The notes under the pieces were generated by a model. That model saw only the letters and a program-made list of their open reading frames with translations. It made no database searches and was not told the DNA's origin. A stretch of 64,000 nucleotides of DNA, taken from NCBI GenBank assembly GCA_041687695.1, contig JAWLBL010000013.1, positions 146,874 to 210,873 on the forward strand, given 5' to 3'. Positions 11,301-64,000 of this stretch are shown here, piece after piece. The DNA is from Myxococcota bacterium. GTDB taxonomy: Bacteria; Myxococcota_A; UBA9042; PHBI01; JAWLBL01. The position numbers and the translations under genes are program-made. Each line of letters starts with the position of its first letter. The stretch's first letter is position 1.

Positions 11301-11469
11301 CGTGAGCTTCGAGTTCTCGGCCAAGGCGGCCGACGCAGGCGCCGTGAGCCTGCTGCTCGACGACGTGGCGGTCACGGCGAAGTACCTGTGCGACGACGGC
11401 GACGCGTGCACCACGAACGACGCGTGCGTGCTGGGCTTCTGTCAGGGACAGGACGGCCTGTGCCCCTGA
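8305..11469 (+). CDS. giant secreted lipoprotein with Myxococcus-type cysteine-rich repeats (C-x-D-G-[DN]-P-C-T-x-D-x-C)
   Basis: 1054 aa. Lipoprotein signal MRKIGATGLGLVVALALVACGDE. At least 18 copies of a roughly 40-aa repeat (CDDGDPCTTDACDPATGGC...), interrupted by two non-Cys domains of about 170 aa each. RBS AGGGGGA. Confidence 0.85.
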   Translation: MRKIGATGLGLVVALALVACGDEVTQTPLPGKTCTVPADCEATLATRGYAAECTTVTCDASRCVFTAVNEGGSCGEGDACVTGGVCANRLCVGEAVVCDDGDPCTTDACDPATGGCTTTPAPGEPCDDGVACTEKDVCQLDGQCLGQPSATCQCAEDADCAALAETDKCAGTFVCGDDFACHADPATVIQCDTSGDTECAGAVCDPATGGCVLTATNEGQPCGEAADDCTGQAVCTNGACAGEAVACDDGDPCTTDECVPGQGCVYEPATGLPCDDGDPCTSPDVCQAGQCQGAAASCDDGNPCTVDACDPVTGQCSHTASDEPCDDGNPCTTGDSCSTGVCKGAGVACDDGNPCTADVCQVGDDGEVTCAHQNVFGVCDDGDPCTGGDACLGGQCVGTEKLCGCSSDQECQDKAPDDLCVGAWLCDTSVTGGKCVPDPATVVTCQANETMCTIDQCDPATGTCKSQPKPDATPCDDGNACSTGDICSSGVCVGNAMDCSDGNPCTGDLCSGGVCSNQPLGGSMTFLDVGFDAGLPDGWTAETTTEGVGWKVSAEYAAEGDFGLVATGPSGVYDHGAVTATLRSPKFWVYGETVQLRLKMKTGFASPTVGADKCFASNDYLSVGVDNYGLLEQVECVSGDAPDWVQLQVDLSFFKNREIGLVFVFHADAEDNGGFGAAIDEVEVSALFTCTDGPCTIGSCTAGACNAGPLVCDDGDPCTLDTCSATTGKCQYKLQVNCGCESDFDCLTFSPCLQGTCGPDGFCEETVITGACDDQDACTVNDVCNEEGECLGDDIVCDDGVPCTDDWCDYSGECVFQFKPLACDDGDACTTNDTCTSASTCAGSPVVCASGSCASGYCSDGSCKFSINHDGSFELEEGFDSLAPNQLPAEWTDNAESPGWSWKSTTTASHSAPTALGLMGPASAYAAATVSVTAPAVSLPPDGGTLRYWVRGTWGDQGCTTDVLRVKVNGTVVDTVCANVPAFAERTVDLAAFATQLATVSFEFSAKAADAGAVSLLLDDVAVTAKYLCDDGDACTTNDACVLGFCQGQDGLCP

Positions 11470-11536
11470 CCGGGCCCGGGCGGCGGGGAGCGTCCGCGTC
11501 GACGCCCCCCATCGGACGGCTTCGGACCGGGAACCG

Positions 11537-11566
11537 TTGAGCGCAGCGGGGTCGCCCGCCTATACT
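11537..11566 (+). promoter_or_regulatory. sigma70-like promoter of Cys-rich lipoprotein gene 2
   Basis: TTGAGC - 18 nt - TATACT, followed by CCGCAC. Same spacing and downstream motif as the element upstream of gene 1. Confidence 0.35.
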
Positions 11567-11613
11567 CCGCACCTCTTCGACGCCGGGGTTCGGAGATGGG
11601 GGGAAGTCCGATC

Positions 11614-14600: not shown

Positions 14601-16617
14601 CGACGGGTCGGCGCCGCAGGGCTCGGTCGAGGTGTGCAACGGGCTCGACGACGACTGCGACGGGCTGACCGACGAGGAGCTGACGTTGGCGGACAGCCCG
14701 TGCAAGGCCGTGGGGCAGTGCGCGGCCGGCGGGGTCGGGGCGATGTGCGCCGACGGCGAGTGGGTGTGCGACTACACGGGCGTCGCCGGCTACGAGGAGG
14801 ACGAGACCCTCTGCGACGGGCTGGACAACGACTGCGACGGGCTGACCGACGAGGGCTGGGACGTGGGCCTGGCGTGCGACGGCGACGACACGGACCTGTG
14901 CCAGAACGGGACCTGGACGTGCACGCCGGACGGGATGGGCCTCGAGTGCCTGAACGAGACCGAGGTCGACATCGAGGAGGTCTGCAACAACTACGACGAC
15001 GACTGCGACGGCGACGTGGACGAGGTCGAGGTCTCGCCCGCCGAGGCCGGGTGCGCCAGCAAGGGCGTGTGCGCGTCGGGCGAGGGCGTCGTCGTCACCT
15101 GCGCCGAGGTCGGCTACGCGTGCGACTACTCCGGCGTTCAGGGCTGGGAGGCCGACGAGACCCTGTGCGACGGGCTCGACAACGACTGCGACGGCAAGAC
15201 CGACGAGGAGCTGCTCTTCGAGGGGGCGGCGCTCGGCGAGGACTGCGACGGCTGGGGCGAGTGCGGCATCGGCAAGGTGCAGTGCGGGCCGGGGGGCAGC
15301 ATCATCTGCTCGACGATGCCCGGGGGCGCGACCCCGCAGGACAAGCCCGAGGTGTGCAACGGCCTCGACGAGGACTGCGACGGGGTCGCCGACGACGACT
15401 TCCTGTGGAACGACCTGCCGGTCGGCGCGGCCTGCGACCCGTCGGGGCCGTGCGGCGAGGGCGTGGTCGAGTGCGCGCCGTCGGGGATGGCGGCGCTGTG
15501 CAGCACGGGCGCGGGCGGGTCGGCCGACCAGGGCCAGCCCGAGACCTGCAACGCCGTCGACGACGACTGCGACGGCCAGACCGACGAGACGGCGGACCTC
15601 GACCTGACCGTCTCGGGGTGCCCGGCCTTCGGCGTGTGCGCCGCGCTCGACCAGTTCGTGTCCTGCACCGACGGCGTGTGGATGTGCCACATGGAGTTGC
15701 TGCCGGACTACGAGCCCGACGAGCAGACCTGCGACGACCAGGACAACGACTGCGACGGCCTGGTCGACGAGAGCTTCCCCGACAAGGGGCAGCTGTGCGA
15801 CGGCCCGGACCCCGACCAGTGTCCGACGGGCAAGCTCGAGTGCAACGCCACGGGAGACGGGTTGGTGTGCGGCGCCGAGACGGGCAAGGGCAGCCCCGAG
15901 ACCTGCGACGGCATCGACAACGACTGCGATGGCCTCATCGACGAAGGCTTCACCTACAAGGGCCTGCCGATGGGCGCGTACTGCGACGGCGTGGGCGCTT
16001 GCGGGCTGGGGCGCGTGGAGTGCAACGGGCAGGGGGCGGCGACGTGCTCGACCAACCCCGACGGCAGCAAGAGCCAGGTGACGGCCGAGGTGTGCAACGG
16101 CAAGGACGACGACTGCGACGGGCTGACCGACGAGGGGCTGACCTGGAACGACATCCCGGTGGGGCAGCCGTGCGACGGCGTGGGCGCCTGCGGGATGGGC
16201 GTCGTGGTGTGCCACGTGAGCAGCGGCCAGGCGACGTGCTCGACCAACCCGAACGGGACGACGCCGCAGAGCACGACCGAGCTGTGCAACGGCCTGGACG
16301 ACGACTGCGACGGGCAGACCGACGAGAGCTTCCCCGAGGCGGGGCAGCCGTGCGACTCGGCGGCCGACGCGGACAGCTGCAAGACGGGCGAGTGGACGTG
16401 CCAGGGCGGGCAGATGAGCTGCCAGGGCGATTACGGCTGCGTGCCGGACAGCGAGTGCTACGACCCGGGGGCGCCGGCCAAGCAGCGATGCCTGTGCGTC
16501 GGGATGCAGTGCACCAAGGCCCACGGCGACTCTTGCGACGCCTTCGGGTGCCACTGCAACGGCGGGCTGCCGTGCGTCGCGCCGAAGGTGTGCGTGCCGA
16601 ACGTGGGGTGTCAGTGA
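11614..16617 (+). CDS. giant secreted lipoprotein with MopE-like putative metal-binding repeats (C-N-G-x-D-D-D-C-D-G-x-x-D-E)
   Basis: About 1667 aa. Lipoprotein signal MRKLFGGVLPAVAALTLLAAGC. The ATG at 11614 has a better RBS than the ORF-track start at 11596. Acidic Pro/Asp/Thr linker, then at least 20 CNGLDDDCDGxTDE repeats plus DCNDNDPxxxPGAxExC variants. Confidence 0.85.
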   Translation: MRKLFGGVLPAVAALTLLAAGCTEVTLVPGLEGETCKRPSECAEGLTCVQGRCAVDTELPFTDVSGDEGGKGDVPPPEDVPDVSNDTTVDAEDVLEVTDPGTPEVIVTPDVPTDTPDDPDVDPIWDVADADAGEETAQTPDATEDVEIDVPPGPPGPDEPCEGDCPTGYLCLPQVDGVARCKPFPKGVCLPCASAADCPTPGAQCLSFPDGQSFCGAVCGTPADCPSGFSCTDGQCRPQTTSCECTPDLFGWSLPCDNAGAGGVCKGQTTCLQKGWSTCSAAAPSVELCNGKDDDCDGITDEEPKYFEKGKSLPFGAPCGLGVCAGGEVVCTPDGGVTCSGNALAGPEVCADQLDNDCDGQVNEGCESDDWDGDGVPNDKDCAPMDASTYPGATEKCCNPALGYNKACDTNCDGKVTPCASCDKDLDGFCPPEDCNDNDPKIHPGAAEKCNDGIDQDCQGGDLLCSAAQDKDGDGFIPPADCNEGNPSVYPYAEELCDNLDNDCDGLIDEGNPQGGQNCGTTAEYCQSGKMVCTHYGYGAVLQCQGAIKYGPETCDGVDNDCDGQTDETFTQLGQPCDGPDSDFCANGVLVCSGDGQGVECSDEAVSNLVEECNGLDDDCDGATDEFVCNLKDLDGDGYTAAQGDCDDWRPEVYPGAAEPCCDPKLGPAAYEICDLNCDGIIVPCGFNDADADGYPAGVDCDDNDPRTYPGAPEKCGDGKDQDCDGVDTNCALVQDKDKDGFHSGIDCNDNDNKVHPWATEVCNYIDDDCDGVIDNGNPSTLSGPCGPGTPGCDPGAWVCVHDAQTYSVKELCINDKFQATELCNGLDDDCDGEIDETFYDLGQPCDGPDADGCANGVFQCSEDGLGVTCGDEVVVDILEVCDGVDNDCNGQTDDGISWEGVALGQICDGTGVCGKGVVVCTAGFTVTCSTNPDGPFPQSKAETCNGLDDDCDGEIDEDFLFDGVPVGGACDGWGECGVGVVECNGAGGATCSTQPDGSAPQGSVEVCNGLDDDCDGLTDEELTLADSPCKAVGQCAAGGVGAMCADGEWVCDYTGVAGYEEDETLCDGLDNDCDGLTDEGWDVGLACDGDDTDLCQNGTWTCTPDGMGLECLNETEVDIEEVCNNYDDDCDGDVDEVEVSPAEAGCASKGVCASGEGVVVTCAEVGYACDYSGVQGWEADETLCDGLDNDCDGKTDEELLFEGAALGEDCDGWGECGIGKVQCGPGGSIICSTMPGGATPQDKPEVCNGLDEDCDGVADDDFLWNDLPVGAACDPSGPCGEGVVECAPSGMAALCSTGAGGSADQGQPETCNAVDDDCDGQTDETADLDLTVSGCPAFGVCAALDQFVSCTDGVWMCHMELLPDYEPDEQTCDDQDNDCDGLVDESFPDKGQLCDGPDPDQCPTGKLECNATGDGLVCGAETGKGSPETCDGIDNDCDGLIDEGFTYKGLPMGAYCDGVGACGLGRVECNGQGAATCSTNPDGSKSQVTAEVCNGKDDDCDGLTDEGLTWNDIPVGQPCDGVGACGMGVVVCHVSSGQATCSTNPNGTTPQSTTELCNGLDDDCDGQTDESFPEAGQPCDSAADADSCKTGEWTCQGGQMSCQGDYGCVPDSECYDPGAPAKQRCLCVGMQCTKAHGDSCDAFGCHCNGGLPCVAPKVCVPNVGCQ

Positions 16618-16654
16618 CCGGCGCCGCCGGCGTGGAACGACGAGGGAGCGCGAG

Positions 16655-18538
16655 ATGAGCTGGAGGACGGCGAGCGGGTGGGTCGCGGCGATGTGGGCGG
16701 CCTGCGCCGTCGGCCTGGGGGCCGCGGGGTGCGGAGACGACGAGCCGGGCGGCGCCGCGGACGCGGATGTCGTGGCGCCGAAGGCCGACGCCGCCGACGA
16801 CGTGGGTGGCGAGGCCGACGCGGCGGACGAGGTGGCCGAGGACGCGGTCGAGCCCGACGCCGAGCCCGCGTGCGCCGAGGGGACGCCCTGCGACGACGGC
16901 GACCCGTGCACGACCGACGACGCGTGCGACGCGGCCGGGCAGTGCGTCGGCGGCGGCGCGACGTGCGACGACGGCCTGGCGTGTACGGCGGACACGTGCG
17001 ACCAGGGCGCGTGCGAGCACACGCTGGTCGCCGGCTTCTGCCTGACCGAGGGCGAGGCGCCCAGCTGCGTGGCCCACAACGGCAAGGACACGGCCGGGTG
17101 CCGGCTGTGCGACGCCGAGGCGCAGGGCGGGCCCAAGTGGAAGAACGCGGCCATTGGCGCCCTGTGCGACGACGGCGACGCCTGCACGGCCGACGACCGC
17201 TGCGAGATCGGGGTGTGCGTCGGCAAGACGGCGGTGACGTGCGCCCCCAGCACCGCGTGTATGCAGGTGGCGTGCGAGCCGGCGGTGGGCTGCGTCGAGA
17301 CGCCCATCGTCGCGGCCTGCGACGACCTGGACGCGTGCACGGCGGACGACGAGTGCAAGGACGGCGTGTGCGTGGGCAAGCCCATCACGTGCGACGACGC
17401 CAACCCGTGCACGGTCGACAGCTGCGACGTGTTCGAGGGCTGCGTCTACGACCCGAGCAGCCAGTGCGACGACGGCGACCCGTGCACCGAGGACGCGTGC
17501 CTGGTGGACGGCAGCTGCGTGAACACGCCGTTCGACGGGCCGTGCGAGGACGGCGACCTGTGCACGACCGGCGAGCAGTGCGCCGAGGGGACGTGCGCCG
17601 GCGGCGAGCCCGTCGTCTGTGACGACGACAACGCCTGCACGGTCGACTCGTGCGACCCGGCCAAGGGGTGCCTGCACCTGTTCGACGACGGCGGCTGCGA
17701 CGACGGGCTCGAGTGCACGACGAGCGACTTCTGCGCCTCGGGCGTGTGCCTGGGCAGCAAGACCGAGACGTGCCCCCTGTGCGCGACCCCGTCGTCGTCG
17801 ATGGCCGTCCGGGTCGCGAGCCTGCAGATCGGGGACGCCGGGCAGCCGGGCGACGGGCTGGACGTCGACGGCAAGCTCTCGACCTGCTCGCCGGCGGGCG
17901 ACTGCAGCGAGGGCATCGACAACAACCTGGGCCTGCTCGCGCCCATCGTGAACCCGTCGATGAACCAGAGCATCGCCGAGGGCGGCCTGCACTTCGTCAT
18001 CGACCTCTCCCAGGCGACCTTCGACGGCCAGCCGTTCCCCCTCGTGGTCTACGACGCCGATCTGATGCAGCCCTGGTGCGACTTCACCGCGGCGACGTGC
18101 AACTACCGCGCGCGCCAGGTCAGCTTCGACGGCGACTGCACGCCCTACTTCGCCATGGACAACGCCGTCATCGAGGCCGGGCGCCTGCGGGGCGGCGGCA
18201 AGGGGTCGGTCATCACCATGGTCATCCCGCTCAGCGGGTCCAGCTCGCTGCCGCTGACCCTGGCCGACGCGGTCATCGAGGGGGACGTCTCGACGACCCC
18301 CGACGGCACCAAGATCATCGGCCTCAACGGCGTCATCGCGGGCGCGCTGCCCAAGACGCAGCTCATCGCGGCCATCGAGGCCTTCGACGAGGATCTCCTG
18401 CCGCTCGACAAGGAGGTCGTCGTCGACCTGCTCGAGAGCATCATCGAGCCGGACATCGACGTGGACGGCGACGGTGTCTTCGAGTCGGCGAGCCTCGGCA
18501 TGTCCGTCAACACGGTGCCGGCCAACCTGGTCCCGTGA
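16655..18538 (+). CDS. secreted Cys-rich repeat lipoprotein (Myxococcus-type repeats) with unique C-terminal domain
   Basis: 627 aa. Signal AAMWAACAVGLGAAGCGDDE, acidic linker, about 10 CDDGDPCT/CDDxNACTVDSC repeats, then a roughly 250-aa non-repeat domain. Starts 38 nt after gene 2 and is probably co-transcribed. Confidence 0.8.
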   Translation: MSWRTASGWVAAMWAACAVGLGAAGCGDDEPGGAADADVVAPKADAADDVGGEADAADEVAEDAVEPDAEPACAEGTPCDDGDPCTTDDACDAAGQCVGGGATCDDGLACTADTCDQGACEHTLVAGFCLTEGEAPSCVAHNGKDTAGCRLCDAEAQGGPKWKNAAIGALCDDGDACTADDRCEIGVCVGKTAVTCAPSTACMQVACEPAVGCVETPIVAACDDLDACTADDECKDGVCVGKPITCDDANPCTVDSCDVFEGCVYDPSSQCDDGDPCTEDACLVDGSCVNTPFDGPCEDGDLCTTGEQCAEGTCAGGEPVVCDDDNACTVDSCDPAKGCLHLFDDGGCDDGLECTTSDFCASGVCLGSKTETCPLCATPSSSMAVRVASLQIGDAGQPGDGLDVDGKLSTCSPAGDCSEGIDNNLGLLAPIVNPSMNQSIAEGGLHFVIDLSQATFDGQPFPLVVYDADLMQPWCDFTAATCNYRARQVSFDGDCTPYFAMDNAVIEAGRLRGGGKGSVITMVIPLSGSSSLPLTLADAVIEGDVSTTPDGTKIIGLNGVIAGALPKTQLIAAIEAFDEDLLPLDKEVVVDLLESIIEPDIDVDGDGVFESASLGMSVNTVPANLVP

Positions 18539-28868: not shown

Positions 28869-28940
28869 TGGGGCGTCGTCAAGTGGCAAGACACGGGTTT
28901 TTGGTACCCGCATTCGTAGGTTCGAATCCTACCGCCCCAA
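28869..28940 (+). tRNA. tRNA-Gln (anticodon UUG)
   Basis: Hand-folded cloverleaf. Acceptor UGGGGCG/CGCCCCA with the U1:A72 pair characteristic of bacterial tRNA-Gln. D-arm GUC...GAC with a GG loop. Anticodon arm CGGGU-UUUUGGU-ACCCG (anticodon UUG). T-arm GUAGG-UUCGAAU-CCUAC. Discriminator A. Near-identical to E. coli tRNA-Gln. Confidence 0.85.
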
Positions 28941-43361: not shown

Positions 43362-44709
43362 GCGCGGCGACGAGGGCCGCGGCCTTGGCCTCGGTCTCGG
43401 CCCACTCGGCCTCGGGCGTGCTGTCCGCGACGATGCCGCCGCCGGTGTGGTAGCTCAGCTGGCCGTCGGCCACGACACACGAGCGGATGAGGATGTTGAA
43501 GGTGGCGCGCCCGGTGCCGTCGACGACGCCCAGGCTGCCGGTGTACAGGCCCCGTCGCAGTCCCTCGACCCGCTCGATGCGGGCCATGGCGGCGATCTTG
43601 GGCGCGCCGGTGATGCTGCCGCCGGGGAAGAGCGCCGTCAGGACGTCGGCGAGGTCGGCGTCGGGGCGGACGCGGGCGGCCACGTCGCTGACCAGGTGGT
43701 GGACGGTCGGCAGCGGCTGCACGCCCAGCAGCTGGGGCACCGAGACCCCGCCCGGGACCGCGACCCGGCCGAGATCGTTGCGCACGAGGTCGACGATCAT
43801 GACGTGCTCGGCGCGCTCCTTGGGGTCGGCGCGGAGCGCGTCGGCCAGGCGTGCGTCCTCGGCAGGCGTTGGGCCACGGGGGCGGGTGCCCTTGATGGGG
43901 TAGCTGTGGGCCGCGCGGGTCGCCGGGTCCCAGGTGAGCAGGCACTCGGGCGAGGCCGAGACCAGCCACTGGTCCGGCCCGAAGGCCCACAGCGCGCCCA
44001 GCGCGGCCGGGCTGCGGGCGCGCAGGGCGCGGTGCAGGGCGGGCGCCAGCGCGGGGTCCATGGGGGCCGACAGGCGCCGTGCCACGTTGGCCTGGTAGAG
44101 GTCGCCGCGGGCGATGCCGTCCAGGACGTCGGCCAGGGCGGCGCGGTGGGCGTCGCGGTCGAGGTGGCTGTCGAGCCGGGTCGGCAGCGTGCCTTGGGCG
44201 AGGGCGCGGGGCGGGCGCTCGAGGTGGGTCAGCAGTCGCCGGCGGGCCGCGTGGTCGGTGGCGTGCAGGCGCCAGGGCCCGGTCGGCCCGTCCGAGGCCA
44301 GGAAGGCGGGGTAGGTGGCAAGGACCAGGTCGGGGACCGAGCCGTCGCGGCGCGCGGTGGCGGGCAGGCGCTCGAGGTTGCGGCCGAGGTCGTAGGACAA
44401 GCCGAGGACGTGCAGCGGCGCGGGCTGCCCGCTGCGCGTGACGTGCCGCCGGAGCCAGTCGGACAGGCCGCGGAGGGGCAGGTCCTCGACCCGCAGGCGC
44501 TGGACGCGGCTGGGGAGCGCGGCGAGCAGGTGCCCGGGGCGCGTGAAGCCGACGGTCGGCCCAGCGGCCGGGAGGGCGTCGCCGCCGTCGGCCCAGAACG
44601 GCGACGCCCGCCACGCGTCCTCGCCGGCGAACAGGCGCTCGGCGAGGACGGGGGCGGGCGCGCCCGAGAGGATGAGCGGTCCCGTGGTCAGGGCGGCGCT
44701 CCGGATCAG
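43327..44709 (-). CDS. chorismate-binding enzyme, anthranilate/aminodeoxychorismate synthase component I family (PabB/TrpE-like), start uncertain
   Basis: C-terminal chorismate-binding domain (SPECLL, IKGTRPRG, PGGSITGAPK, GIVADSTPEAEWAE). No in-frame ATG/GTG start exists downstream of the pspA stop. A CTG at 44709 overlaps the pspA TGA. Confidence 0.75.
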   Translation of the reverse strand: MIRSAALTTGPLILSGAPAPVLAERLFAGEDAWRASPFWADGGDALPAAGPTVGFTRPGHLLAALPSRVQRLRVEDLPLRGLSDWLRRHVTRSGQPAPLHVLGLSYDLGRNLERLPATARRDGSVPDLVLATYPAFLASDGPTGPWRLHATDHAARRRLLTHLERPPRALAQGTLPTRLDSHLDRDAHRAALADVLDGIARGDLYQANVARRLSAPMDPALAPALHRALRARSPAALGALWAFGPDQWLVSASPECLLTWDPATRAAHSYPIKGTRPRGPTPAEDARLADALRADPKERAEHVMIVDLVRNDLGRVAVPGGVSVPQLLGVQPLPTVHHLVSDVAARVRPDADLADVLTALFPGGSITGAPKIAAMARIERVEGLRRGLYTGSLGVVDGTGRATFNILIRSCVVADGQLSYHTGGGIVADSTPEAEWAETEAKAAALVAALSAGPPPPPAP

Positions 44710-45476
44710 CGCTCGCGCAGGAGCGCCTCGAGCTCGGCCTCGACGTCGTCGACCGAGGCCGACTGCTGACCGGGCGGCAGCGCCGCGGGCTGGGCGGCGG
44801 GGGCCACGCCCATCTTGGCCTTGAGGGCCGCGAGCGCGTCGTCCTGCGCGACGTCCGAGGAGCTGAGGGCGTCGAACTGCTTGGACAGCGAGTCGGTGTC
44901 GAGGTCGCCCGAGAGCTCGAGCGCGGCCTGCGCCTCGGCCTCGGCGCGGTCGACCTTCTCCTCCATGCGCGAGAAGGTGTCGAAGGCGCTGTTGTCCTTC
45001 ATCCCCGCCATGGTGTCCTGGATCTTCTTCTGCGCCTCGGCCCGCTTCTGGCGCGCGATGAGGAGGTTCTTCTTGCGCGAGGCCTCCTCGATCTTCTTGT
45101 TGAGCGCCGTCAGGGCGTCCCGCAGCTGGTCGGCGGCCTGCTTCTGCGCCACCCACTGCTGCTGGAACTGCTCGGCCAGGGTGTCGTGCTCACCCTTGCG
45201 GGCCAGCGCCTGGCGGGCGAGGTCGTCGCGGCCGGCCTTGATGGCCGTCATCGCCTTCTTCTCCCACTCGCGCGCCTTCTCGAGCTCGCTCTCGTACTGG
45301 CGCTTGAGGCGCTTTTCGTCGGCGATGGCGACGGCGACCTGCTTGCGCGCCTCGAGGAACTGCTGGCGCATGTCGATGATGAGCTGGTTGAGGATCTTCT
45401 CGGGATCCTCGGCCTTGCTGATGAGCGCGTTGATGTTCGACTTCAGCAGCGTCGACATCCGGGCGAAGATGCTCAT
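44706..45476 (-). CDS. pspA: phage shock protein A (PspA/IM30/Vipp1 family)
   Basis: 256 aa, all coiled-coil. MSIFARMSTLLKSNINALISKAEDPEKILNQLI is the canonical PspA N-terminus. ATG at 45476 is preceded by GAGGAGG. Confidence 0.9.
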   Translation of the reverse strand: MSIFARMSTLLKSNINALISKAEDPEKILNQLIIDMRQQFLEARKQVAVAIADEKRLKRQYESELEKAREWEKKAMTAIKAGRDDLARQALARKGEHDTLAEQFQQQWVAQKQAADQLRDALTALNKKIEEASRKKNLLIARQKRAEAQKKIQDTMAGMKDNSAFDTFSRMEEKVDRAEAEAQAALELSGDLDTDSLSKQFDALSSSDVAQDDALAALKAKMGVAPAAQPAALPPGQQSASVDDVEAELEALLRER

Positions 45477-45478
45477 GG

Positions 45479-45898
45479 TCAGGCCTCCTCGGTGGCCGTC
45501 TCGTCGGCCCGCTGGTGAAAGCCCCTCAGCAGCTCGTAGTGCTCGCTGATGGCCAGGGAAAGGCTGTCGATGGCCGCCTCGAACTCGTTGTAGTCGAGGT
45601 TCTCGGACTGGAGGGTCTCGCTGGCGATGACCGCGTTGCCTTCGAGGCCGTAGGCGCCGGCGACCATCTCCGTGGCGTTGAGCTCGAGCAGGCGGCGATA
45701 CAGCGCGCGCTGCGCCTCGGGGTCCTCCGGGACCTCCATCAGCTTGACGCGGAAGACCACGATGGGTGGGCTGTAACGGATGACGATGTTGTCGATGTGG
45801 TCGACTTCGTCGTGGATGATCCACAACCCCTCTTCGACGGACTCGTACTCGAGTCCGCTTCGGATGAGGTAGCCTTCGAGGGTTTCGGGACGGTCCAT
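45479..45898 (-). CDS. YbjN-like small acidic protein (putative chaperone-like or sensory regulator fold)
   Basis: 139 aa. ATG at 45898. Stop lies 2 nt before the pspA ATG, which places it in a pspA operon. The family is assigned only by sequence resemblance. Confidence 0.5.
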   Translation of the reverse strand: MDRPETLEGYLIRSGLEYESVEEGLWIIHDEVDHIDNIVIRYSPPIVVFRVKLMEVPEDPEAQRALYRRLLELNATEMVAGAYGLEGNAVIASETLQSENLDYNEFEAAIDSLSLAISEHYELLRGFHQRADETATEEA

Positions 45899-57266: not shown

Positions 57267-57285
57267 CGCGGGCGCCCGCGGCGGA

Positions 57286-58272
57286 TCAGCGCGCGGCCTC
57301 GGCCAGGAGCAGGCTGGACGGACGCGAGGCCATGTCGCGTCGGGCGCCGGCCGTCTCGATGAGGGCGACCACCTCGGTGCCGATCCCCGGCCTCATGCGC
57401 AGCGCCAGGTGATCGACCATCTGGTAGACGCGGGTCAGGCCCAGGCCGGCGCCGCCCTGCTTGGTGTCGATCTGGTCGGGGCCGCCGCGTAGCCCCTTGG
57501 AGACGAAGCGGCGCGCCGTGACGGCCACCAGGCTGCCGTAGGGGTCGCGGACGGCGACGGCGGCTTGCTGGTCGTCGGCGGCCATGGTCAAGACGGCCGC
57601 GCCGCGCGCCGGCAGCTCGACGCGCTGGCGGCGGTCGAGCGAGGCGAACAGGGGCTTGCCGTTGGCGTCGACCGGGGCGTCGTAGACGGCGTTGGTCACC
57701 AGCTCTTCGGCGGCGTCCTGCAGCAGCGAGACGAGGCGGCGACGCAGGCCGCGCTGCCCGAAGAAGTCGGCGACCACGTCCAGCGCGCCGTCGCGGTCGT
57801 CGCTGCCGCGCAGCGGGACCTCGCAGGTGGCGGCGCCCGGGGCCATCAGGCCGTCCCAGCCGAACGACGGGCCGGCGAGGCGGCAGCGCAGGGCGTGGCG
57901 CAGCTCGCGGTCGCTGGCGAAGTGGTCGCGCGGGACGATGGCGAGGGTCGTGGGCAGGCCGATCAGGGCGGCGAGGCGGTCGTGCTCGCAGGGGCCGCAC
58001 AAGAAGATCACCGGCGCGCCGGCGAGGCGGCCGACGACCGCCTCGAGCGCCTGCGTCGGGCGCGCGCCCAGCAGCTCGGGGTCGATGACCGCGACCGAGA
58101 GCGGCCCCGCGGGGAAGGTCGTCGGGTCGACCGCGGCCACCGGGTCCAGGCCGGCCTCTCTCAGGACGCCGGCGACCCGCGGCTCGTCGAGCGTGCCGAC
58201 GAAGACCAGCGCGCGTCGGGTCACCCCGGCGGGGGCGGCGTTCAGCTTGGCGGTCCCGGCGGGGGTCGGCAT
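57286..58272 (-). CDS. receiver-like domain fused to a GHKL (HATPase_c) ATPase, RsbW/SpoIIAB-like serine-kinase candidate
   Basis: C-terminal AEELVTNAVYDAP...GGAGLGLTRVYQMVDHL (N-box and G-box of GHKL) with no HisKA/DHp region. N-terminal roughly 170-aa CheY-like fold (ALVFVGT...VAVIDPEL...VIFLCG). Last gene of the STAS/PP2C operon. Confidence 0.7.
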   Translation of the reverse strand: MPTPAGTAKLNAAPAGVTRRALVFVGTLDEPRVAGVLREAGLDPVAAVDPTTFPAGPLSVAVIDPELLGARPTQALEAVVGRLAGAPVIFLCGPCEHDRLAALIGLPTTLAIVPRDHFASDRELRHALRCRLAGPSFGWDGLMAPGAATCEVPLRGSDDRDGALDVVADFFGQRGLRRRLVSLLQDAAEELVTNAVYDAPVDANGKPLFASLDRRQRVELPARGAAVLTMAADDQQAAVAVRDPYGSLVAVTARRFVSKGLRGGPDQIDTKQGGAGLGLTRVYQMVDHLALRMRPGIGTEVVALIETAGARRDMASRPSSLLLAEAAR

Positions 58273-58277
58273 CGGGG

Positions 58278-59216
58278 CTACTCCGGTAGGGTCGGGACGA
58301 TCGCGGCCTGGCCCACCGACGGCCGGGGCAGCTGGCCCGTGGCCTCGAGGCGGGCGCGCGGGGGTTTGACGTCGGCGGCGCTCGCCGGGACGACGATGGG
58401 GCGGGCCCGCTCGACCAGCGGGGCGCTCTGCATGGCGCGGGCCGCGGCGGCGAAGGCCTTGCCCGTGCCGGCGCGCCAGCCGGCGATGCCGCCGCCCTTG
58501 CCGGCGCCGCCGAGCAGGGCCTGGGTGACGGCGTCCTTGATGGGAGCGGACAGGGCAGCGCCCTGGGGCGCCACGACGACGGCCAGCGGGATGCGGCCGC
58601 CCTGTCCGACGAGGCGCAGGCCCGCGGCGGCCGGATGGTCCAGCGGGGCGAAGGCGGCCGGGGTCACCTGCGCCTTGACGGCGCCCAGGGCCGCCTCGGC
58701 GTCCTTGGCGGGCCGGACCTCGGCGAAGAAGCCCTGGCCCGACACCTCGCCGGCCAGGGCCGCGTTGATGAAGTAGCGGGCGTTGTCGGCCCCGACCTCG
58801 GGGACGCTGAGCACCTTGCCGCGCAGGCTCATGAGGTTCGCCACGTCGGGCGCGGCGTACAGGGCGGCGAGGGGGCCCTCTTCGCCCCGGCCGTCGACGG
58901 CGTGGGCCAGGATGACGCCCGTCCGGCCGACCTGGAACAGTCCGTCGGTCACAAGCACGTCGACCTTGCCGGCGGCCAGGAAGCTGAGCAGGTCGGCGCG
59001 CTTGGCGAAGGCGCGGGCCTCGAAGGTCAGCTGGCCCCCGGCGGCCTGGCTCATCGCTCTGGCCAGGGCGTCGGCGTAGGCGCTGCGCTCGGTGTTCGAG
59101 GCGAAAGAGGCCTGCGGCAGGTAGACGCCGACGCTGACCGTCTGGGCGGCCGCGAGGCCCGGCGCCAGCAGCGTCAGGGCGAGCAGGACGACGGCGAGCA
59201 GGCGACGCGAGCGCAT
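58278..59216 (-). CDS. periplasmic binding-protein-like protein (PhnD/SsuA-type fold candidate)
   Basis: 312 aa. Signal MRSRRLLAVVLLALTLLAPGLAAAQT. Alternating beta-alpha pattern of a type-II PBP. Its ATG shares one nt with the upstream TGA (TGATG). Confidence 0.6.
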   Translation of the reverse strand: MRSRRLLAVVLLALTLLAPGLAAAQTVSVGVYLPQASFASNTERSAYADALARAMSQAAGGQLTFEARAFAKRADLLSFLAAGKVDVLVTDGLFQVGRTGVILAHAVDGRGEEGPLAALYAAPDVANLMSLRGKVLSVPEVGADNARYFINAALAGEVSGQGFFAEVRPAKDAEAALGAVKAQVTPAAFAPLDHPAAAGLRLVGQGGRIPLAVVVAPQGAALSAPIKDAVTQALLGGAGKGGGIAGWRAGTGKAFAAAARAMQSAPLVERARPIVVPASAADVKPPRARLEATGQLPRPSVGQAAIVPTLPE

Positions 59217-61663
59217 CAGTTCACCCCCTGACCGGCGACGAAGCCGAAGAGGCGCTCCTTGCGCTCGGCGCGCTCGCGGGCGCGCTGTGCGTCGGGGCGA
59301 CCCGAGGTGGCGTAGCGCCGGAAGAGATCCCAGGCTTCGCGATAGGCGCCCTCGCGGTCGCGGATCAGCGCCAGGTTGTAGAGCGCCTCGGGCGGGCCGC
59401 CGTCGCTGGTCTGCCGGAGCCAGGTGCGGGCGGCCTCGCCGGCCTGACCGGAGGCGAGGCGCGCCGCGGCGATGTTGTGGTCCATGGCGGCGCTGGGGGC
59501 GGCCTGCGCCGCCTGGGTCCAGTGCTGGATGGCCTTGGCCCAGGCCTTGGCCGCGTAGGCGGCGTGGCCGAGCTGCTCGTGGGCGGCGGCGGTGATGGCG
59601 GCGGCGGTCGGGCCGCCGTCGCGCACCTTGGCCAGCGCCTTGAGGGCGCCGTTGGCGTCGCCCTTCCGCAGCAGGCTCCACGCCACGCACGCGTGCGCGA
59701 GCTCGCGCGCCGAGGCCCAGGCGGGGCCTGCGAGCGCCCGTCCCTCGGCCATCTGCCGCAGCGCACCCAGCGGGCCTTCGCTGCCAGGGGCGGCCAGGAC
59801 GGCGGCCATCGCGGAGCCCAGCTGGGCCAGCGTGCGATCGCGCGCCTCGAGCCCCTCCTTGGCGGACAGCGCCCGCTCGAGGGCCGCCCGCGCGCCTCCG
59901 GCGTCCCCCGCGGCCAGCCGGTCGAGCCCCAGCTCGAGGGCCGCGATCGCGGCGCTGCGTTGCGCCGCGGCGTCTCCCGGCGCCAGCGCGGCGGCCTCGT
60001 CGAAGGCCTCGGAGGCCCGCGCCCACTCGCCCTTGTGGGCGGCCAGGTGCCCCGTGACCGTCAGGGCCAGGCCCTGCAGCTGCGTCCCGGCCGCGGTGGC
60101 GGCCTCGATCTCGGCCTGCGCCGGCTCGTGACGCCCGGCGAGCAGATGCAGCATCGCCCGGACGGCCCGCGCGTCCGGCCCCGACGGCGCGTCCTCGCGG
60201 CCGCTCGGCCCGATGGCTCGCTCGGCCGCCTCGACCTGGCCCGCCGCCAGCTCGAGCAGCGCCAGGTTCACGCGCGCCGGCTCGTAGGTCGGCATCCGGT
60301 CCAGCGCCTCCTGCAGCCCCCGCCGCGCCGCGGCGTCGTCCCCGGTGGCGCGCGCGGCGGCGGCCTGCGCCGTCTTGACGGTGACCAGCCCCAGCGTCGC
60401 GTCGGTCAGCGCCGGGTCGAGCGTGGCGGCGCGCTCGAAGGCGGCGAGCGACTCCTGGAGCCGCTGCAGCGCCCACAGATCGCGCCCGCGCTCGACGTGC
60501 AGCGGCGCGCGCTCGGGCGCCTTGTGGAGGGCCTTGTCGTGCCAGGCCAGCGCCTCGTTCGGCCGGCCGGCCCGGCGCAGCAAGGTCCCGAGCCACCCCG
60601 TGATCTCGAAGGAGTCGTCGAGACCGGCGGCTCTCTCGGCCTGGGTCAGCGCCTCGTCGAGCTGGCCCTCGCGGAAGGCGATCTGGCTCAACCCGTAGTA
60701 GACCCACGGGTTGTTGGCGGCGCCCGTCCCGGCGAGTTCGAAGGTCTGGCGGGCCTCGGCGAGGCGCCCGAGCTGCAGCTGGCAGTCCGCCTTGAAGTAC
60801 AGGGCGGTGGCGTAGTCGGGTTGCAGCTTCAGGAAGCGGTCGAGCAGCGCGACGGCCTGGTCGCAGCGGCCCTGCTTGATGCGCACCGACGCCAGGTTGT
60901 AGAGCAGGCGCGGGCGGTCGCCCTCCTCGCCCAGCAGCTCCTCGTAGGCGCGGCCGGCCTCGACCAGCCGCGACGAGCGGAACAGGGCGTTGGCGCGGTT
61001 GATGCGCGCCGCCAGGTTCTTGGGCTCGACCACGAGGAAGGCGTCCAGGGCCACGACGGCCTCCTGGAAGCGATCGAGCTTGAGGTAGTAGGTGCCGAGG
61101 AGCCCGAGCGCCTTCTTGTCGTCGGGACGGACCTTTACGTACCGCTCGATGTGCGGCAGGCCTTCGAACCAGCCCGACTGCTGGAAGTGATAGGTCGCCA
61201 GGAGCCACATGGCGTCGAAGCGCTTGGGGTCGTCGGCGACGCGCTCGAGCAGCTTGGCCGCGTCCTGCGGGCGGCCGTTCTGGAACTGGTGCAGGCCGAG
61301 CTGGTGCGTGTAGTCGGGGTCGTCCGGGGCCTTGGCGTGCAGCGGCTCGAGGAGGTCGACGCCCTCCTGGAAGCGCTTGTCGATGAGCAGCGCTCGCGAC
61401 AGGCCGAGGTTGGCCTGCTTGTTGCCGGGCTCTCCCGCCAGGATGCGCCGGTAGGCCTTCTCGGCCTCGGCGACGCGCTGCTTGGCCGCCTTGGTGTCGC
61501 CCCGCGCGGTCAGCGTCCGCGCCGAGTCGAGCGCGTCGTCGCCCACCTGCAGCAGGCGCTGCTTCTCGCGCTTGTCGAGATCCTGCGCCCCCAGCGCGGG
61601 GCCGAGGGACAGCGCGACGGCCATCGCCGCCGCGAGTAGGCGTGCGGCGAGGCGGGGCGTCAC
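59216..61663 (-). CDS. large periplasmic TPR-repeat protein
   Basis: 815 aa. Signal MTPRLAARLLAAAMAVALSLGPALGAQD. At least 15 TPR-like helical repeats. GTG start overlaps the upstream phosphatase stop (GTGA). Confidence 0.75.
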   Translation of the reverse strand: MTPRLAARLLAAAMAVALSLGPALGAQDLDKREKQRLLQVGDDALDSARTLTARGDTKAAKQRVAEAEKAYRRILAGEPGNKQANLGLSRALLIDKRFQEGVDLLEPLHAKAPDDPDYTHQLGLHQFQNGRPQDAAKLLERVADDPKRFDAMWLLATYHFQQSGWFEGLPHIERYVKVRPDDKKALGLLGTYYLKLDRFQEAVVALDAFLVVEPKNLAARINRANALFRSSRLVEAGRAYEELLGEEGDRPRLLYNLASVRIKQGRCDQAVALLDRFLKLQPDYATALYFKADCQLQLGRLAEARQTFELAGTGAANNPWVYYGLSQIAFREGQLDEALTQAERAAGLDDSFEITGWLGTLLRRAGRPNEALAWHDKALHKAPERAPLHVERGRDLWALQRLQESLAAFERAATLDPALTDATLGLVTVKTAQAAAARATGDDAAARRGLQEALDRMPTYEPARVNLALLELAAGQVEAAERAIGPSGREDAPSGPDARAVRAMLHLLAGRHEPAQAEIEAATAAGTQLQGLALTVTGHLAAHKGEWARASEAFDEAAALAPGDAAAQRSAAIAALELGLDRLAAGDAGGARAALERALSAKEGLEARDRTLAQLGSAMAAVLAAPGSEGPLGALRQMAEGRALAGPAWASARELAHACVAWSLLRKGDANGALKALAKVRDGGPTAAAITAAAHEQLGHAAYAAKAWAKAIQHWTQAAQAAPSAAMDHNIAAARLASGQAGEAARTWLRQTSDGGPPEALYNLALIRDREGAYREAWDLFRRYATSGRPDAQRARERAERKERLFGFVAGQGVN

Positions 61664-63228
61664 GTGATCCTCCCGATGACCACGGTCACGTCGTCCTCGA
61701 GCGGGACCTGGTCGCGGAACTGGTCGAAGTCCGTCACCAGGTGACGGATGGCCTCCTCGGGGCCGATGGCGCGGTCGAACTCGCTCAGGACGCGCAGCAG
61801 GCGCCGCATGCCGTACTGCTTGCCGCCGCGCCCCACCGACTCGATGAGCCCGTCGGTGTACCAGACGATGAGGTCACCCGACTGCACCTTGGTGCGCCGC
61901 GCCTCGAAGCCGGCCGGGTCGCCGTCGCCCAGGCGGTTGCCGCGCGAGACCAGGCGGGTGAGCTTGACGCCGTCCTCGGCCCAGCGCAGCAGCAGGGCGG
62001 GCGGGTGGCCGGCCGACGAGAAGAACAGGGTGCTCTGGTGCGTGTCGAGGATGGCCGCGGTGGCGGTCATGAAGAACGAGCCGGCGCCGGCGTCGCGGAT
62101 GACGCGATCGAGGACCCGCAGCGTCTCGGAGACCTGCAGGCTGTCGCCCTGCAGGTGCCGCAGCGTGTCCAGGCAGCTCTTGGCCGTGGCGGTCAGCATC
62201 GCCGCCGGCACGCCATGGCCGGTGACGTCGCCGACGAGCAGGGCGCTGCAGCCGCGGGGCAGGGCGGCGAAGTCCCAGAAGTCGCCGCCGCAGGTCGTGG
62301 CGGGCTCGTAGTAGCCGGCGACCTCGAGGCCCGGCGCCGTGTGCGTCCCCTCGCCGGGCACCAGGACGCTCTGGATCTGGCGCGCCAGGCTCAGCTCGTG
62401 CTCGAGCTCGGCCTTGGACACGGCCTCGACCAGCAGCGTCTGGATTCGGTCGGCCATGTGGTTGAACTGCAGCCCCAGGCTGCCGACCTCGTCGTTGGAC
62501 TCGACGCGCACGCGCGCGCCCAGGTCGCCCTGCGCGATCTGCGAGGCGGTCCGCTCGAGGCGCTGGATGGGGCGCGCGAACCGGAACGCCTGCAGCAGGC
62601 TCAGCAGCACGCCCAGGCTGAGGGCGACGGCGCCGACGAGCAGGGTCGAGTGGAGCGCCTTGCGCGTGCGCTCGGCGCGCTCGGTCTCGACCGAGGCGAG
62701 CGAGGCCTGTAGCGGCTCGAGATCGTAGCCAAACGCGACGATGCCACGGGCGACCTGTTCGCCGCCCTCGCCGTCGACCACGATGGGTTGCTGGACCCGC
62801 AGGATGCGCTTGCCGTCCTCGTCGTCCTCTCGGGCCGAGGCGGCGAGCAGGCCGTCGACCGGCGCGTCGAGGCGCGGCAGCTCGGCGGCGTCGATGGCGC
62901 GGCGCGAGTCGGCGAGGATGCGGCCGTCACGGTCGGCGACCAGGGCGAAGACGACCTGCGGGTCGTGCGCGACCAGGCCGCGCACCACCGAACCCAGCGT
63001 GCCGAGCTCCGTCCCCTCGAGCGCCTCGCGCAGCGACACCGACAGGACGGTCGCGGTCGACTGCGCGCGCCGGTTGGCCAGGTCGGAGAAGGTCGCCTGC
63101 ATGTCGCTCGCGCGCTCGTCGTGCAGGCGCCGGATCTCGACCGCGTTGACGTAGCCGAGGAAGGCGACGACCAGCGCGACCAGCAGCGTGGACGCGAGCG
63201 TGAGCTTGACGCCGAGGGTGAGTCTCAT
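61660..63228 (-). CDS. transmembrane HAMP-domain PP2C-type serine phosphatase (RsbU/SpoIIE-like)
   Basis: 522 aa. TM1 LTLASTLLVALVVAFLGYV, a roughly 160-aa extracytoplasmic loop, TM2 LLVGAVALSLGVLLSLLQAF, HAMP (RPIQRLERTASQIAQGDLGARV...VGSLGLQFNHMADRI), then a SpoIIE/PP2C domain (GGDFWDF, DVTGHG, LIVWYTDGLIE, LEDDVTVVI). Confidence 0.85.
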   Translation of the reverse strand: MRLTLGVKLTLASTLLVALVVAFLGYVNAVEIRRLHDERASDMQATFSDLANRRAQSTATVLSVSLREALEGTELGTLGSVVRGLVAHDPQVVFALVADRDGRILADSRRAIDAAELPRLDAPVDGLLAASAREDDEDGKRILRVQQPIVVDGEGGEQVARGIVAFGYDLEPLQASLASVETERAERTRKALHSTLLVGAVALSLGVLLSLLQAFRFARPIQRLERTASQIAQGDLGARVRVESNDEVGSLGLQFNHMADRIQTLLVEAVSKAELEHELSLARQIQSVLVPGEGTHTAPGLEVAGYYEPATTCGGDFWDFAALPRGCSALLVGDVTGHGVPAAMLTATAKSCLDTLRHLQGDSLQVSETLRVLDRVIRDAGAGSFFMTATAAILDTHQSTLFFSSAGHPPALLLRWAEDGVKLTRLVSRGNRLGDGDPAGFEARRTKVQSGDLIVWYTDGLIESVGRGGKQYGMRRLLRVLSEFDRAIGPEEAIRHLVTDFDQFRDQVPLEDDVTVVIGRIT

Positions 63229-63232
63229 CGCG

Positions 63233-64000
63233 TCACTCCAGCGTCACGATGAGGTAGACGATGACGCCGAGCAGCCCGAGCATCACGAGGAGCACGCCGA
63301 CGAAGACGACGTCGCCGCCGCGGCGACCCGTCGCCTGGGAGGGTGGGGCCGCGGCGCCGAGGCGGGCCGCCACCTGGGAGATGGTCGACTGCGAGCGCTC
63401 CGGGTCGGGGGTGACGCCGAGCTGCGCGATGGTGCGCGCCCCGCCGGCGCCCGGGCCCGACACGAGCGGGGCGGCGTCGGAGGCGCCGGCGTCCAGGGCC
63501 ACGCGGGCCGCCGCGACCATCGGCTCGAGCTGCTCGCGGTCGACCTCGCGGGGCTGGTCCTCGATGAAGCCGAAGTAGTTCTCCTCGACGTCGTCGAGGG
63601 CGTTGCCGCAGGCGGCCTTGCCGCAGGGGAACTGCGGGGCGGCGCGCCGGCCCGGGCCGCGGAGATCCAGCGCGTTGAGGCGCTCGTCGCCCTCCTTGCC
63701 GCACTTGTCGCAGTAGTAGGGGGCGAAGAAGGTGAAGACCGTGGCGGCGCCGGCGAAGTTCCGGACCAGGTTGACCTGGTCCATGATGGCCGGCGAGCAG
63801 TCGAAGAGCACGACGCGCAGCCTGCGCTTGTGCAGCTCGGCCATCCAGTTGACCCAGTCGCGGACGCCGACCGAGTTGATGCGGTAGATGCCGGCGAGGT
63901 CGACGAGCAGCGTGTCGTGACGGATGCGGGCCGTCAGATCGGGCAGCCCGTTGTGCTCGTCGATGACCCCCGACAGGCGGATGGCCGTCCAGCGCTCACC
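63233..64000 (-). CDS. STAS-domain anti-sigma-factor-antagonist-like protein with C-terminal Zn-ribbon and TM anchor (5' end beyond window)
   Basis: Reverse-strand translation from the window edge gives ...ERWTAIRLSGVIDEHNGLPDL...LLVDLAGIYRINSVGVRDWVNWMAELHKRRLRVVLFDCSPAIMDQVNLV (STAS fold). Then CDKCGKEG...CGKAACGN (Cys4), then a hydrophobic tail VVFVGVLLVMLGLLGVIVYLIVTLE. The ORF track begins only at the internal Met 63844. Confidence 0.7.
   Translation of the reverse strand, partial: GERWTAIRLSGVIDEHNGLPDLTARIRHDTLLVDLAGIYRINSVGVRDWVNWMAELHKRRLRVVLFDCSPAIMDQVNLVRNFAGAATVFTFFAPYYCDKCGKEGDERLNALDLRGPGRRAAPQFPCGKAACGNALDDVEENYFGFIEDQPREVDREQLEPMVAAARVALDAGASDAAPLVSGPGAGGARTIAQLGVTPDPERSQSTISQVAARLGAAAPPSQATGRRGGDVVFVGVLLVMLGLLGVIVYLIVTLE

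Follow-up and report, generated by a model that had tools for sequence, protein, structure and literature searches.

A myxococcotal operon that probably encodes a partner-switching module assembled at the inner membrane

We analyzed a 64,000-nucleotide stretch of DNA from a Myxococcota bacterium (positions 146,874 to 210,873 of contig JAWLBL010000013.1; hereafter, the window). At its end, at 57286-64000 on the minus strand, five genes form an operon that probably encodes a partner-switching module that is assembled at the inner membrane and whose output is either distal or does not involve a sigma factor. Besides the two-component systems, bacteria rely on a few major signaling logics, and partner switching is among these. 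To our knowledge, almost everything that is known about it comes from soluble modules of the Bacillus type that control sigma factors. In this operon, all three of the core parts appear to be modified for the membrane: the phosphatase would be a sensor that faces the periplasm, the switch protein has a tail anchor as well as four cysteines that are invariant, and a pseudo-receiver is part of the kinase. Overall, the partner-switching reading is supported by the evidence that we describe below.

A first-pass annotation of this DNA, which was made by a model from the sequence, had placed five coupled genes here, and every coordinate and junction held up. In order of transcription, we predict that they encode a tail-anchored STAS protein (g1; 272 amino acids; 63233-64000, with the first 17 codons lying in the 51 nt past the window's end on the parent contig); a PP2C phosphatase of the SpoIIE/RsbU type with two transmembrane (TM) segments, a periplasmic domain, and a HAMP domain (g2; 522 amino acids; 61660-63228); a secreted TPR protein with a non-lipoprotein signal peptide (g3; 815 amino acids; 59216-61663); a secreted protein that is probably a periplasmic binding protein of the PhnD/AioX type (g4; 312 amino acids; 58278-59216); and a cytoplasmic protein with a pseudo-receiver and a GHKL serine kinase domain of the SpoIIAB/RsbW type (g5; 328 amino acids; 57286-58272). 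There is a 4-nt gap between g1 and g2 (TGAcgcgATG), a 4-nt overlap between g2 and g3 (GTGA), a 1-nt overlap between g3 and g4 (TGATG), and a 5-nt gap between g4 and g5 (TAGccccgATG). The five genes are also called on a public contig (JAWLHM010000023.1 from GCA_041690335.1), and those calls match the open reading frames (ORFs) of the window. The final 6.7 kb of the window has a GC content of about 73-78%. Within each of the five genes, the GC content of the third codon position (GC3) is 0.96-0.97 in the claimed frame, versus about 0.5 for the second position, so these are genuine genes and not the ORF noise of GC-rich DNA.

Beyond g1, the parent contig continues with a divergent cdsA, and 3' of g5 there is a convergent gene for a PRK-family kinase. 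Because it is bounded on both sides, the operon comprises exactly five genes. The stop codons of g5 and of the PRK gene are separated by just 19 nt (57267-57285), and this spacer contains a GC palindrome (GCGGGCGCCCGC) with no T-run. Scans for intrinsic terminators and for sigma-70 promoters at the ends of the operon gave no matches, which is uninformative at 73% GC.

The phosphatase, g2, is the most straightforward of the core proteins to classify. (All of the features of the operon are on the minus strand.) Hydropathy predicts two TM segments, at about residues 2-33 and 190-218, and a loop of about 157 amino acids between them. This loop (about residues 34-190; 62659-63129) would be an extracytoplasmic sensor and is possibly Cache-like: it matches the profiles for dCache_1 (E = 7.5e-4, 19.5 bits, cutoff 45) and sCache_3_2 (E = 4.5e-3, 17.5 bits, cutoff 28.4) at sub-threshold scores, and it is moderately conserved among orthologs. 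The HAMP domain (residues 216-263; 62440-62583; PF00672, E = 2.3e-14) and the match to SpoIIE (E = 1.1e-37) both exceed the gathering scores of Pfam. Within the PP2C catalytic domain (61669-62376) we found the motifs GGDFWD, GDVTGHG, TDG, and DDVT. The metal-binding aspartates (D316, D334, D459, and D512/D513) are invariant in 11 orthologs, one of which is just 36% identical, so that g2 has the intact metal site of a PPM/PP2C phosphatase of the SpoIIE type. Its sequence matches in the PDB are the RsbU domain of Rv1364c (E = 1e-15), a “putative serine phosphatase” from Pseudomonas (6k4e; E = 2e-10), and RssB.

The candidate switch protein is g1. Its Ser60, which is encoded at 63872-63874, is a candidate phosphorylation site. 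This serine lies in the motif R-x-N-S-x-G-V-R and is invariant in 26 of 26 orthologs as well as in all of the distant homologs. It aligns with the serine of the xS(S/T/A)G motif of an antagonist from Haliangium (4hyl), and in the structure model of g1 it sits at the N-terminus of helix 2 (residues 60-75), which we take to be the position of the phospho-acceptors of SpoIIAA (Ser58) and RsbV (Ser56). In other words, g1 has the feature that marks a STAS-fold antagonist, a conserved phosphorylatable serine or threonine at the start of helix 2. A profile match identifies its type as STAS_2. The STAS assignment draws on family-level matches and predicted structures; a single-sequence search of the PDB with g1 returned only noise (a zinc-finger knuckle).

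After the STAS core, g1 has an insert that resembles a zinc ribbon (63602-63721), with four cysteines in the arrangement C114-x2-C117 ... C143-x4-C148. All four are invariant in the 26 orthologs, and distant soluble STAS homologs have the canonical CxxC...CxxC. The family profile of g1 matches zinc-finger knuckles in the PDB. The insert would bind a metal, presumably zinc. A variable linker that is rich in alanine and proline leads to the C-terminal TM anchor (63239-63316), which was identified by hydropathy and in the structure model. Residues 243-272 have a mean Kyte-Doolittle value of 2.97 and are the only C-terminal TM segment; the anchor is modeled as a helix at residues 246-271 with a predicted local distance difference test (pLDDT) score of 97. 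The TM helix is conserved in all 26 orthologs and ends in YLIxTLE (YLIVTLE in g1). This invariant end (63233-63250) is predicted to be on the periplasmic side. In the literature that we searched, which covers part of the field, we found no account of a STAS antagonist that is tail-anchored or has a zinc ribbon.

The putative kinase, g5, has a receiver-like (CheY-fold) domain at its N-terminus (57868-58221) followed by a GHKL ATP-binding domain (57298-57831). The residues of the N box (E190-x2-T-N194-A), the G1 box (D243-x2-G246), and the G2 box (G273-G-A-G-L-G-L279) that define an RsbW/SpoIIAB-type kinase are all present, and they are invariant in 16 orthologs. Among known structures, g5 best matches that of the anti-sigma factor SpoIIAB, and UsfX and RsbW come next. 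As with g1, the assignment to GHKL comes from family-level matches and from predicted structures, and a single-sequence search of the PDB gave only noise (armadillo repeats). Hydropathy identified no TM or signal-like segment in g5.

The N-terminal domain of g5 retains an invariant aspartate (Asp64) at the end of strand 3, lacks the acidic pair after strand 1, and has an invariant arginine in place of the receiver lysine. These motifs rule out a true two-component receiver, and we consider the domain to be a pseudo-receiver. The first-pass annotation had correctly recognized both the receiver-like and the GHKL folds. It had also suggested that g5 might signal through its receiver-like domain, but with the acidic pair and the lysine absent, classical phosphotransfer is unlikely.

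Proteins that combine a receiver (REC)-like domain with GHKL make up a large, unstudied family. When we searched the representatives of 1.84 billion clusters (at 50% identity) with a profile, 2,790 clusters with this architecture had E ≤ 1e-3, of which 539 had E ≤ 1e-30, and most of these proteins are 300-345 amino acids long. There is no curated family for them; when named, they are “hypothetical”, “CheY-like”, or “anti-sigma regulatory factor”. Some members (P0114, P0149, P0173, P0180, and P0117) are fused to Ser/Thr kinase, cyclic-nucleotide-monophosphate (cNMP)-binding, PilZ, PEGA, or dCache-HAMP-GAF-SpoIIE modules; in P0117, it is dCache-HAMP-GAF-SpoIIE that is joined to a GHKL domain of the g5 type. 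This range of fusions hints at diverse wiring that does not involve sigma factors.

The other two genes of the operon encode secreted proteins. TPRs run throughout g3 (TPR_16, E = 3.8e-38; TPR_19, E = 3.3e-33; and other TPR families in Pfam), and its N-terminus has a hydrophobic signal-like segment with no lipobox cysteine. The best match of g3 in NCBIfam is the PEP-CTERM TPR protein PrsT, with 157 bits; since this is under the cutoff of 312, the likeness is due to TPR similarity only. For g4, hydropathy supports a signal-like segment (residues 3-29). The g4 of the window has no match in Pfam. Among 12 of its orthologs, three match PF12974 (Phosphonate-bd; best E = 2.3e-9), one has a weak match to TIGR01096 (Lys/Arg/Orn-binding; E = 3e-4), and one has a weak match to TIGR01098 (phosphonate-binding; E = 0.07). 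PF12974 is also a precomputed assignment for P0046, a member of the g4 family. Searches of the PDB with g4, whether with the single sequence or the profile, found nothing meaningful. A periplasmic binding protein of the PF12974 type is therefore the probable, but not proven, identity of g4. The orthologs of g4 have a proline-rich C-terminal tail with a conserved P-x-L-P-E (58278-58370). Short C-terminal peptides are classic ligands of TPRs, and it is a speculation that the TPRs of g3 might bind either this tail or the YLIxTLE end of g1.

Overall, the predicted folds agree with the earlier view of the operon: STAS, PP2C, HAMP, GHKL, receiver-like, and TPR domains were all found, g2 has the two TM segments and a loop close to the 160 amino acids that had been proposed, and g3 is an 815-amino-acid TPR protein with a signal peptide. 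The membrane anchor of g1 was borne out as well. For g4, which had been described as a signal-bearing protein that resembles a periplasmic binding protein, the signal-like segment stands, and the similarity to PF12974 was seen at the level of the family rather than in the protein from the window.

From the gene structure, the coupling, the folds, the catalytic and phospho-site motifs, the predicted topology, and the recurrence of the gene set, we infer the interactions and the direction of the signal as follows. In the periplasm, g3 and g4 would act on the loop of g2 that resembles Cache; they might bring it a ligand, in the way that AioX serves AioS, or they might form a scaffold. The HAMP domain would pass the signal to the PP2C domain, which would dephosphorylate Ser60 of the tail-anchored, zinc-ribbon-bearing g1. 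Unphosphorylated g1 would then bind g5 and draw the kinase to the membrane, away from another partner. Finally, g5 would re-phosphorylate Ser60 and be released, which would reset the switch.

To see how the genes are arranged in other genomes, we compared related loci. A search of 5.8 billion proteins for the g1 family yielded a small set of 26 clusters, which are 34-59% identical and share one full length. In GTDB, where we scanned a single genome for each species, we found 19 loci, all of them from metagenome-assembled genomes (MAGs); nearly all are labeled as Myxococcota, Myxococcales, or Deltaproteobacteria, and one as Bdellovibrionia. The order STAS, PP2C, TPR, g4, g5, with tiny gaps or overlaps, is kept in 10 of the 10 fetched loci that are long enough. 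These represent eight distinct genomes (L011 and L015 re-fetch L002 and L004), in which g1 is 39-59% identical. At one locus (L022:9716-10807), the STAS gene is split over three frames (profile positions 6-102, 76-147, and 196-271) and the PP2C and TPR genes are intact; the split may reflect either a pseudogene or a frameshift in the assembly.

In close relatives, a region of 20 kb is collinear (tolQRAB, an FHA/TPR protein, an orphan response regulator, cdsA, the operon, the PRK gene, a TPR protein, and asd). Because the whole 20 kb is collinear, synteny within the clade is not in itself proof of a functional linkage. We therefore discounted the conserved order in the eight genomes as evidence of linkage and relied on three independent contexts (L017, L018, and L019). 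Two genes of the collinear region, which lie upstream of cdsA and outside of the window, are kept in all of the close relatives: one for an orphan single-domain response regulator of 124 amino acids (L001:7321-7695, plus strand) and one for an 816-amino-acid protein with FHA and TPR domains (L001:3033-5483, plus strand). The FHA domain binds phosphothreonine.

The first independent context, L017, is from a Myxococcaceae MAG and has a set of three genes: a g5-like protein (341 amino acids), a PP2C protein (623 amino acids) that matches only the catalytic half of g2 (residues 262-522), and a soluble STAS protein of 159 amino acids whose zinc ribbon is of the canonical CxxC...CxxC form. In L019, from a Kofleriaceae MAG, a g5-like gene adjoins a gene for a STAS protein with a zinc ribbon. 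L018, from a Myxococcales MAG, has unrelated flanking genes and a different order: a double STAS-zinc-ribbon protein with a PDZ domain, a 375-amino-acid protein, an 812-amino-acid TPR protein, a g4-like protein (E = 5.6e-25 with the g4 profile), and a 2TM-HAMP-PP2C protein that is 36% identical to g2. This locus also encodes a divergent STAS-zinc-ribbon protein of 177 amino acids. The protein that heads the L018 cluster (L018:2818-4977, plus strand; 719 amino acids) has its STAS and zinc-ribbon modules in tandem, at residues 10-176 and 209-394, followed by the PDZ domain.

Judging by these loci, the zinc-ribbon STAS protein, the REC-like kinase, and the PP2C phosphatase appear to travel together. 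The fusion of dCache-HAMP-GAF-SpoIIE to a g5-type GHKL domain in P0117 likewise supports a link between phosphatase and kinase that owes nothing to the collinearity of the clade. The pair of TPR protein and g4 appears to travel with the membrane-sensor phosphatase and is missing where the phosphatase has no sensor part. Also, because the two types of protein are side by side in three contexts, the zinc ribbon of g1 and the pseudo-receiver of g5 may dock on each other.

Several observations weigh against this interpretation. In the window, the Pfam matches of g1 to STAS (E = 0.04) and of g5 to GHKL (E = 2.6e-4) are both below the gathering scores, and the Cache-like call for the loop of g2 is below threshold as well. 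The G1 box of g5 is D-x-x-G rather than D-x-G-x-G, so its kinase activity is not certain. The identity of g4 as a binding protein hangs on three of 12 orthologs. The link between the secreted pair and the phosphatase comes from translational coupling and from one independent locus (L018). Lastly, we found no gene for a target in the operon or in the annotated part of the window, which leaves the output step entirely conjectural.

Our search for a target covered the genes called from about 12.4 kb to the end of the window and the ORFs in 0.3-11.5 kb; several ORFs have no family assignment, and for two gaps (11.5-12.4 kb, approximately, and parts of 51-57 kb) there is only the contig annotation or the sequence was not scanned. 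In the operon and among these annotated genes, we found neither a sigma factor nor an anti-sigma factor, in agreement with the first-pass annotation as far as our annotation of the window reaches, and we also found no GGDEF protein or any other obvious target. The 10 kb that flank the related loci on each side, in the eight distinct genomes as well as in L017 and L019, likewise showed no sigma factor or other target. The first-pass annotation had also placed the rest of the STAS gene, and perhaps the output, beyond position 64000. The STAS gene does run past the end of the window, but by 51 nt only, and what follows is the divergent cdsA; extending the contig revealed neither an output nor an rsbRSTUVW-sigB locus of which the operon might be a fragment.

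As to what the output could be, one specific proposal is possible, and we advance it tentatively, as less likely than not. The operon would be a spatial switch: the status of the periplasm, as conveyed by the TPR protein, the binding protein, and the Cache-HAMP-PP2C phosphatase, would set the phosphorylation state of a zinc-binding, tail-anchored STAS protein, which would recruit or release the kinase at the inner membrane. The zinc ribbon and the pseudo-receiver would be a co-evolved docking pair, and the output would be non-transcriptional, such as a factor in envelope or lipid biogenesis.

We consider it unlikely that the operon is instead a classical anti-sigma switch, in which g5 sequesters a distal sigma factor as RsbW does and the membrane components are only the input, as in Chlamydia. 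The ranking of SpoIIAB, UsfX, and RsbW among the structural matches of g5 counts in favor of this explanation; for some members of the g5 family, the source gives the name “anti-sigma regulatory factor (Ser/Thr protein kinase)”; and in the Chlamydia system with a transmembrane RsbU, the target is encoded outside of the operon (PMC11619594). However, the annotated part of the roughly 64 kb and the flanking 10 kb of the related loci lack a sigma factor, as described above. Also, g5 has an additional receiver-like domain, and the fusions seen among its relatives involve PilZ, PEGA, cNMP-binding, or Ser/Thr kinase domains, with no link to sigma factors. Furthermore, many of the characterized partner switches have outputs other than sigma factors, such as SiaC acting on SiaD, SypA, or HsbA acting on HsbD (as cited in PMC7647112 and PMC10120452).

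Another explanation is that g1 is an accessory or scaffold at the membrane and not a phospho-switch, for instance a transporter regulator similar to MlaB, or a sensor of nucleotides or of zinc or redox state, and that the PP2C and GHKL proteins act on other substrates. This is improbable, and we rejected the MlaB-like or transport role because no MlaF, MlaE, or MlaD components of an ABC transporter are co-encoded.

Least probable of all is that only the cytoplasmic triad is a partner switch and that g3 and g4 are unrelated periplasmic passengers, such as envelope assembly factors: shared ancestry would account for the gene order across the collinear Tol-cdsA-operon-PRK-asd region of the close relatives, L017 and L019 have the triad or the kinase-STAS pair with neither TPR nor g4, and g3 and g4 have no direct signaling domain, but the two genes sit between those for the phosphatase and the kinase with overlaps of 1-4 nt in several genomes, a large TPR gene and a g4 homolog are again immediately upstream of HAMP-PP2C in L018 despite its other flanks and order, and the pair is absent precisely where the PP2C protein lacks the 2TM-HAMP sensor (L017).

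Elsewhere in the window, the annotated genes are mostly housekeeping genes (CarD, SecA, RibF, ribosomal proteins, CysS, Def/Fmt, an H+-PPase, and PspA). Three consecutive large genes at 8305-18538 on the plus strand encode cysteine-rich repeat proteins of 1054, 1673, and 627 amino acids (with Dicty_CTDC repeats and Cu-binding_MopE), which are probably secreted or on the surface. At 44706-45898 on the minus strand, a PspA/IM30 gene is directly downstream of a gene that resembles CesT/Tir chaperones, which is an unusual pairing. The sole tRNA of the window is a tRNA-Gln (TTG) at 28869-28940 on the plus strand.

If the partner-switching module works as we propose, then sensing via solute-binding proteins (SBPs) would extend to PP2C phosphatases, and a relocalization rather than the release of a sigma factor would be suggested as the output of the switch. 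The operon would also provide the first functional lead for the REC-like-GHKL family, with its thousands of uncharacterized members. If the spatial switch in particular is correct, then there is a large and unstudied branch of partner switching, with at least 2,790 clusters of kinases at 50% identity, and the operon would be the first case in which an SBP controls a PP2C phosphatase. The carriers of the operon that we found are all uncultured Myxococcota that are represented by MAGs.

The module has three folds in common with the RsbU/V/W and SpoIIE/AA/AB systems of Bacillus: a PPM phosphatase, a STAS antagonist with a serine at the start of helix 2, and a GHKL serine kinase. SpoIIE is membrane-bound, with 10 TM segments and no HAMP domain. 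The operon departs from the Bacillus modules in that there is no sigma gene nearby, that its STAS protein is extended by the Cys4 insert, by a long linker, and by a TM anchor at the C-terminus, that a pseudo-receiver precedes the kinase domain, that the phosphatase is built as a 2TM-HAMP sensor, and that genes for two periplasmic proteins are included.

Among the non-sigma systems, SiaABCD of Pseudomonas aeruginosa includes SiaA, a 2TM-HAMP-PP2C phosphatase, along with the kinase SiaB and SiaC, which has the SpoIIAA fold (PMC7647112). SiaA has the same architecture as g2 and is its best match in NCBIfam (NF038263). We rejected membership in SiaABCD because this match reaches 84 bits where the cutoff is 700, the partner is of the STAS_2 type and not DUF1987, and there is no gene for a GGDEF protein (SiaD) at the locus. 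In SypE/SypA of Vibrio fischeri and HsbR/HsbA of Pseudomonas, a receiver together with an RsbW-like kinase controls a STAS protein, again with a non-sigma output (PMC10120452, PMC6482189). In those systems, a single polypeptide combines receiver, kinase, and phosphatase, and its receiver truly accepts a phosphoryl group, whereas here the membrane phosphatase is separate and the receiver-like domain has neither the acidic pair nor the lysine.

The phosphatase has precedents too. HAMP has been listed among the input domains that partner-switch phosphatases use (PMC12143880), Cache domains occur on serine phosphatases (PMC4822843), and a HAMP-SpoIIE protein has long been noted in Myxococcus and Anaeromyxobacter (PMC2887360). 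According to PMC11619594, which cites Soules et al. 2020 (PMC7007330), RsbU of Chlamydia trachomatis has a periplasmic ligand-binding domain between two TM helices, through which this phosphatase senses the periplasm directly. The differences are that RsbV1/V2 and RsbW of Chlamydia are soluble single-domain proteins, that the proposed target is sigma-66, and that no periplasmic accessory proteins are co-encoded. Given SiaA and the Chlamydia RsbU, the novelty that the first-pass annotation implied for a membrane-embedded phosphatase that senses the periplasm was overstated.

The closest parallel for the secreted proteins is AioX, a PF12974 binding protein that functions only in signaling and acts on AioS, a membrane sensor with an sCache-like domain (PMC8050422). 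Here as well, a secreted protein that may be of the PF12974 family (the call is weak) is encoded beside a 2TM sensor with a Cache-like loop of about 150 amino acids, and there is no ABC transporter. The differences are that the output here is PP2C and not a histidine kinase and that the 815-amino-acid TPR protein is present. A review of receptors that are stimulated by SBPs lists chemoreceptors, kinases, cyclic di-GMP enzymes, and Ser/Thr kinases, with no PP2C example (PMC8050422), and in the literature that we searched, whose coverage is partial, no SBP-controlled PP2C phosphatase is described. Each single ingredient of the operon, then, has a precedent. What is distinctive is the combination of a tail-anchored Cys4 STAS protein, a pseudo-receiver kinase of the RsbW type, and two secreted proteins that are encoded between the phosphatase and the kinase.

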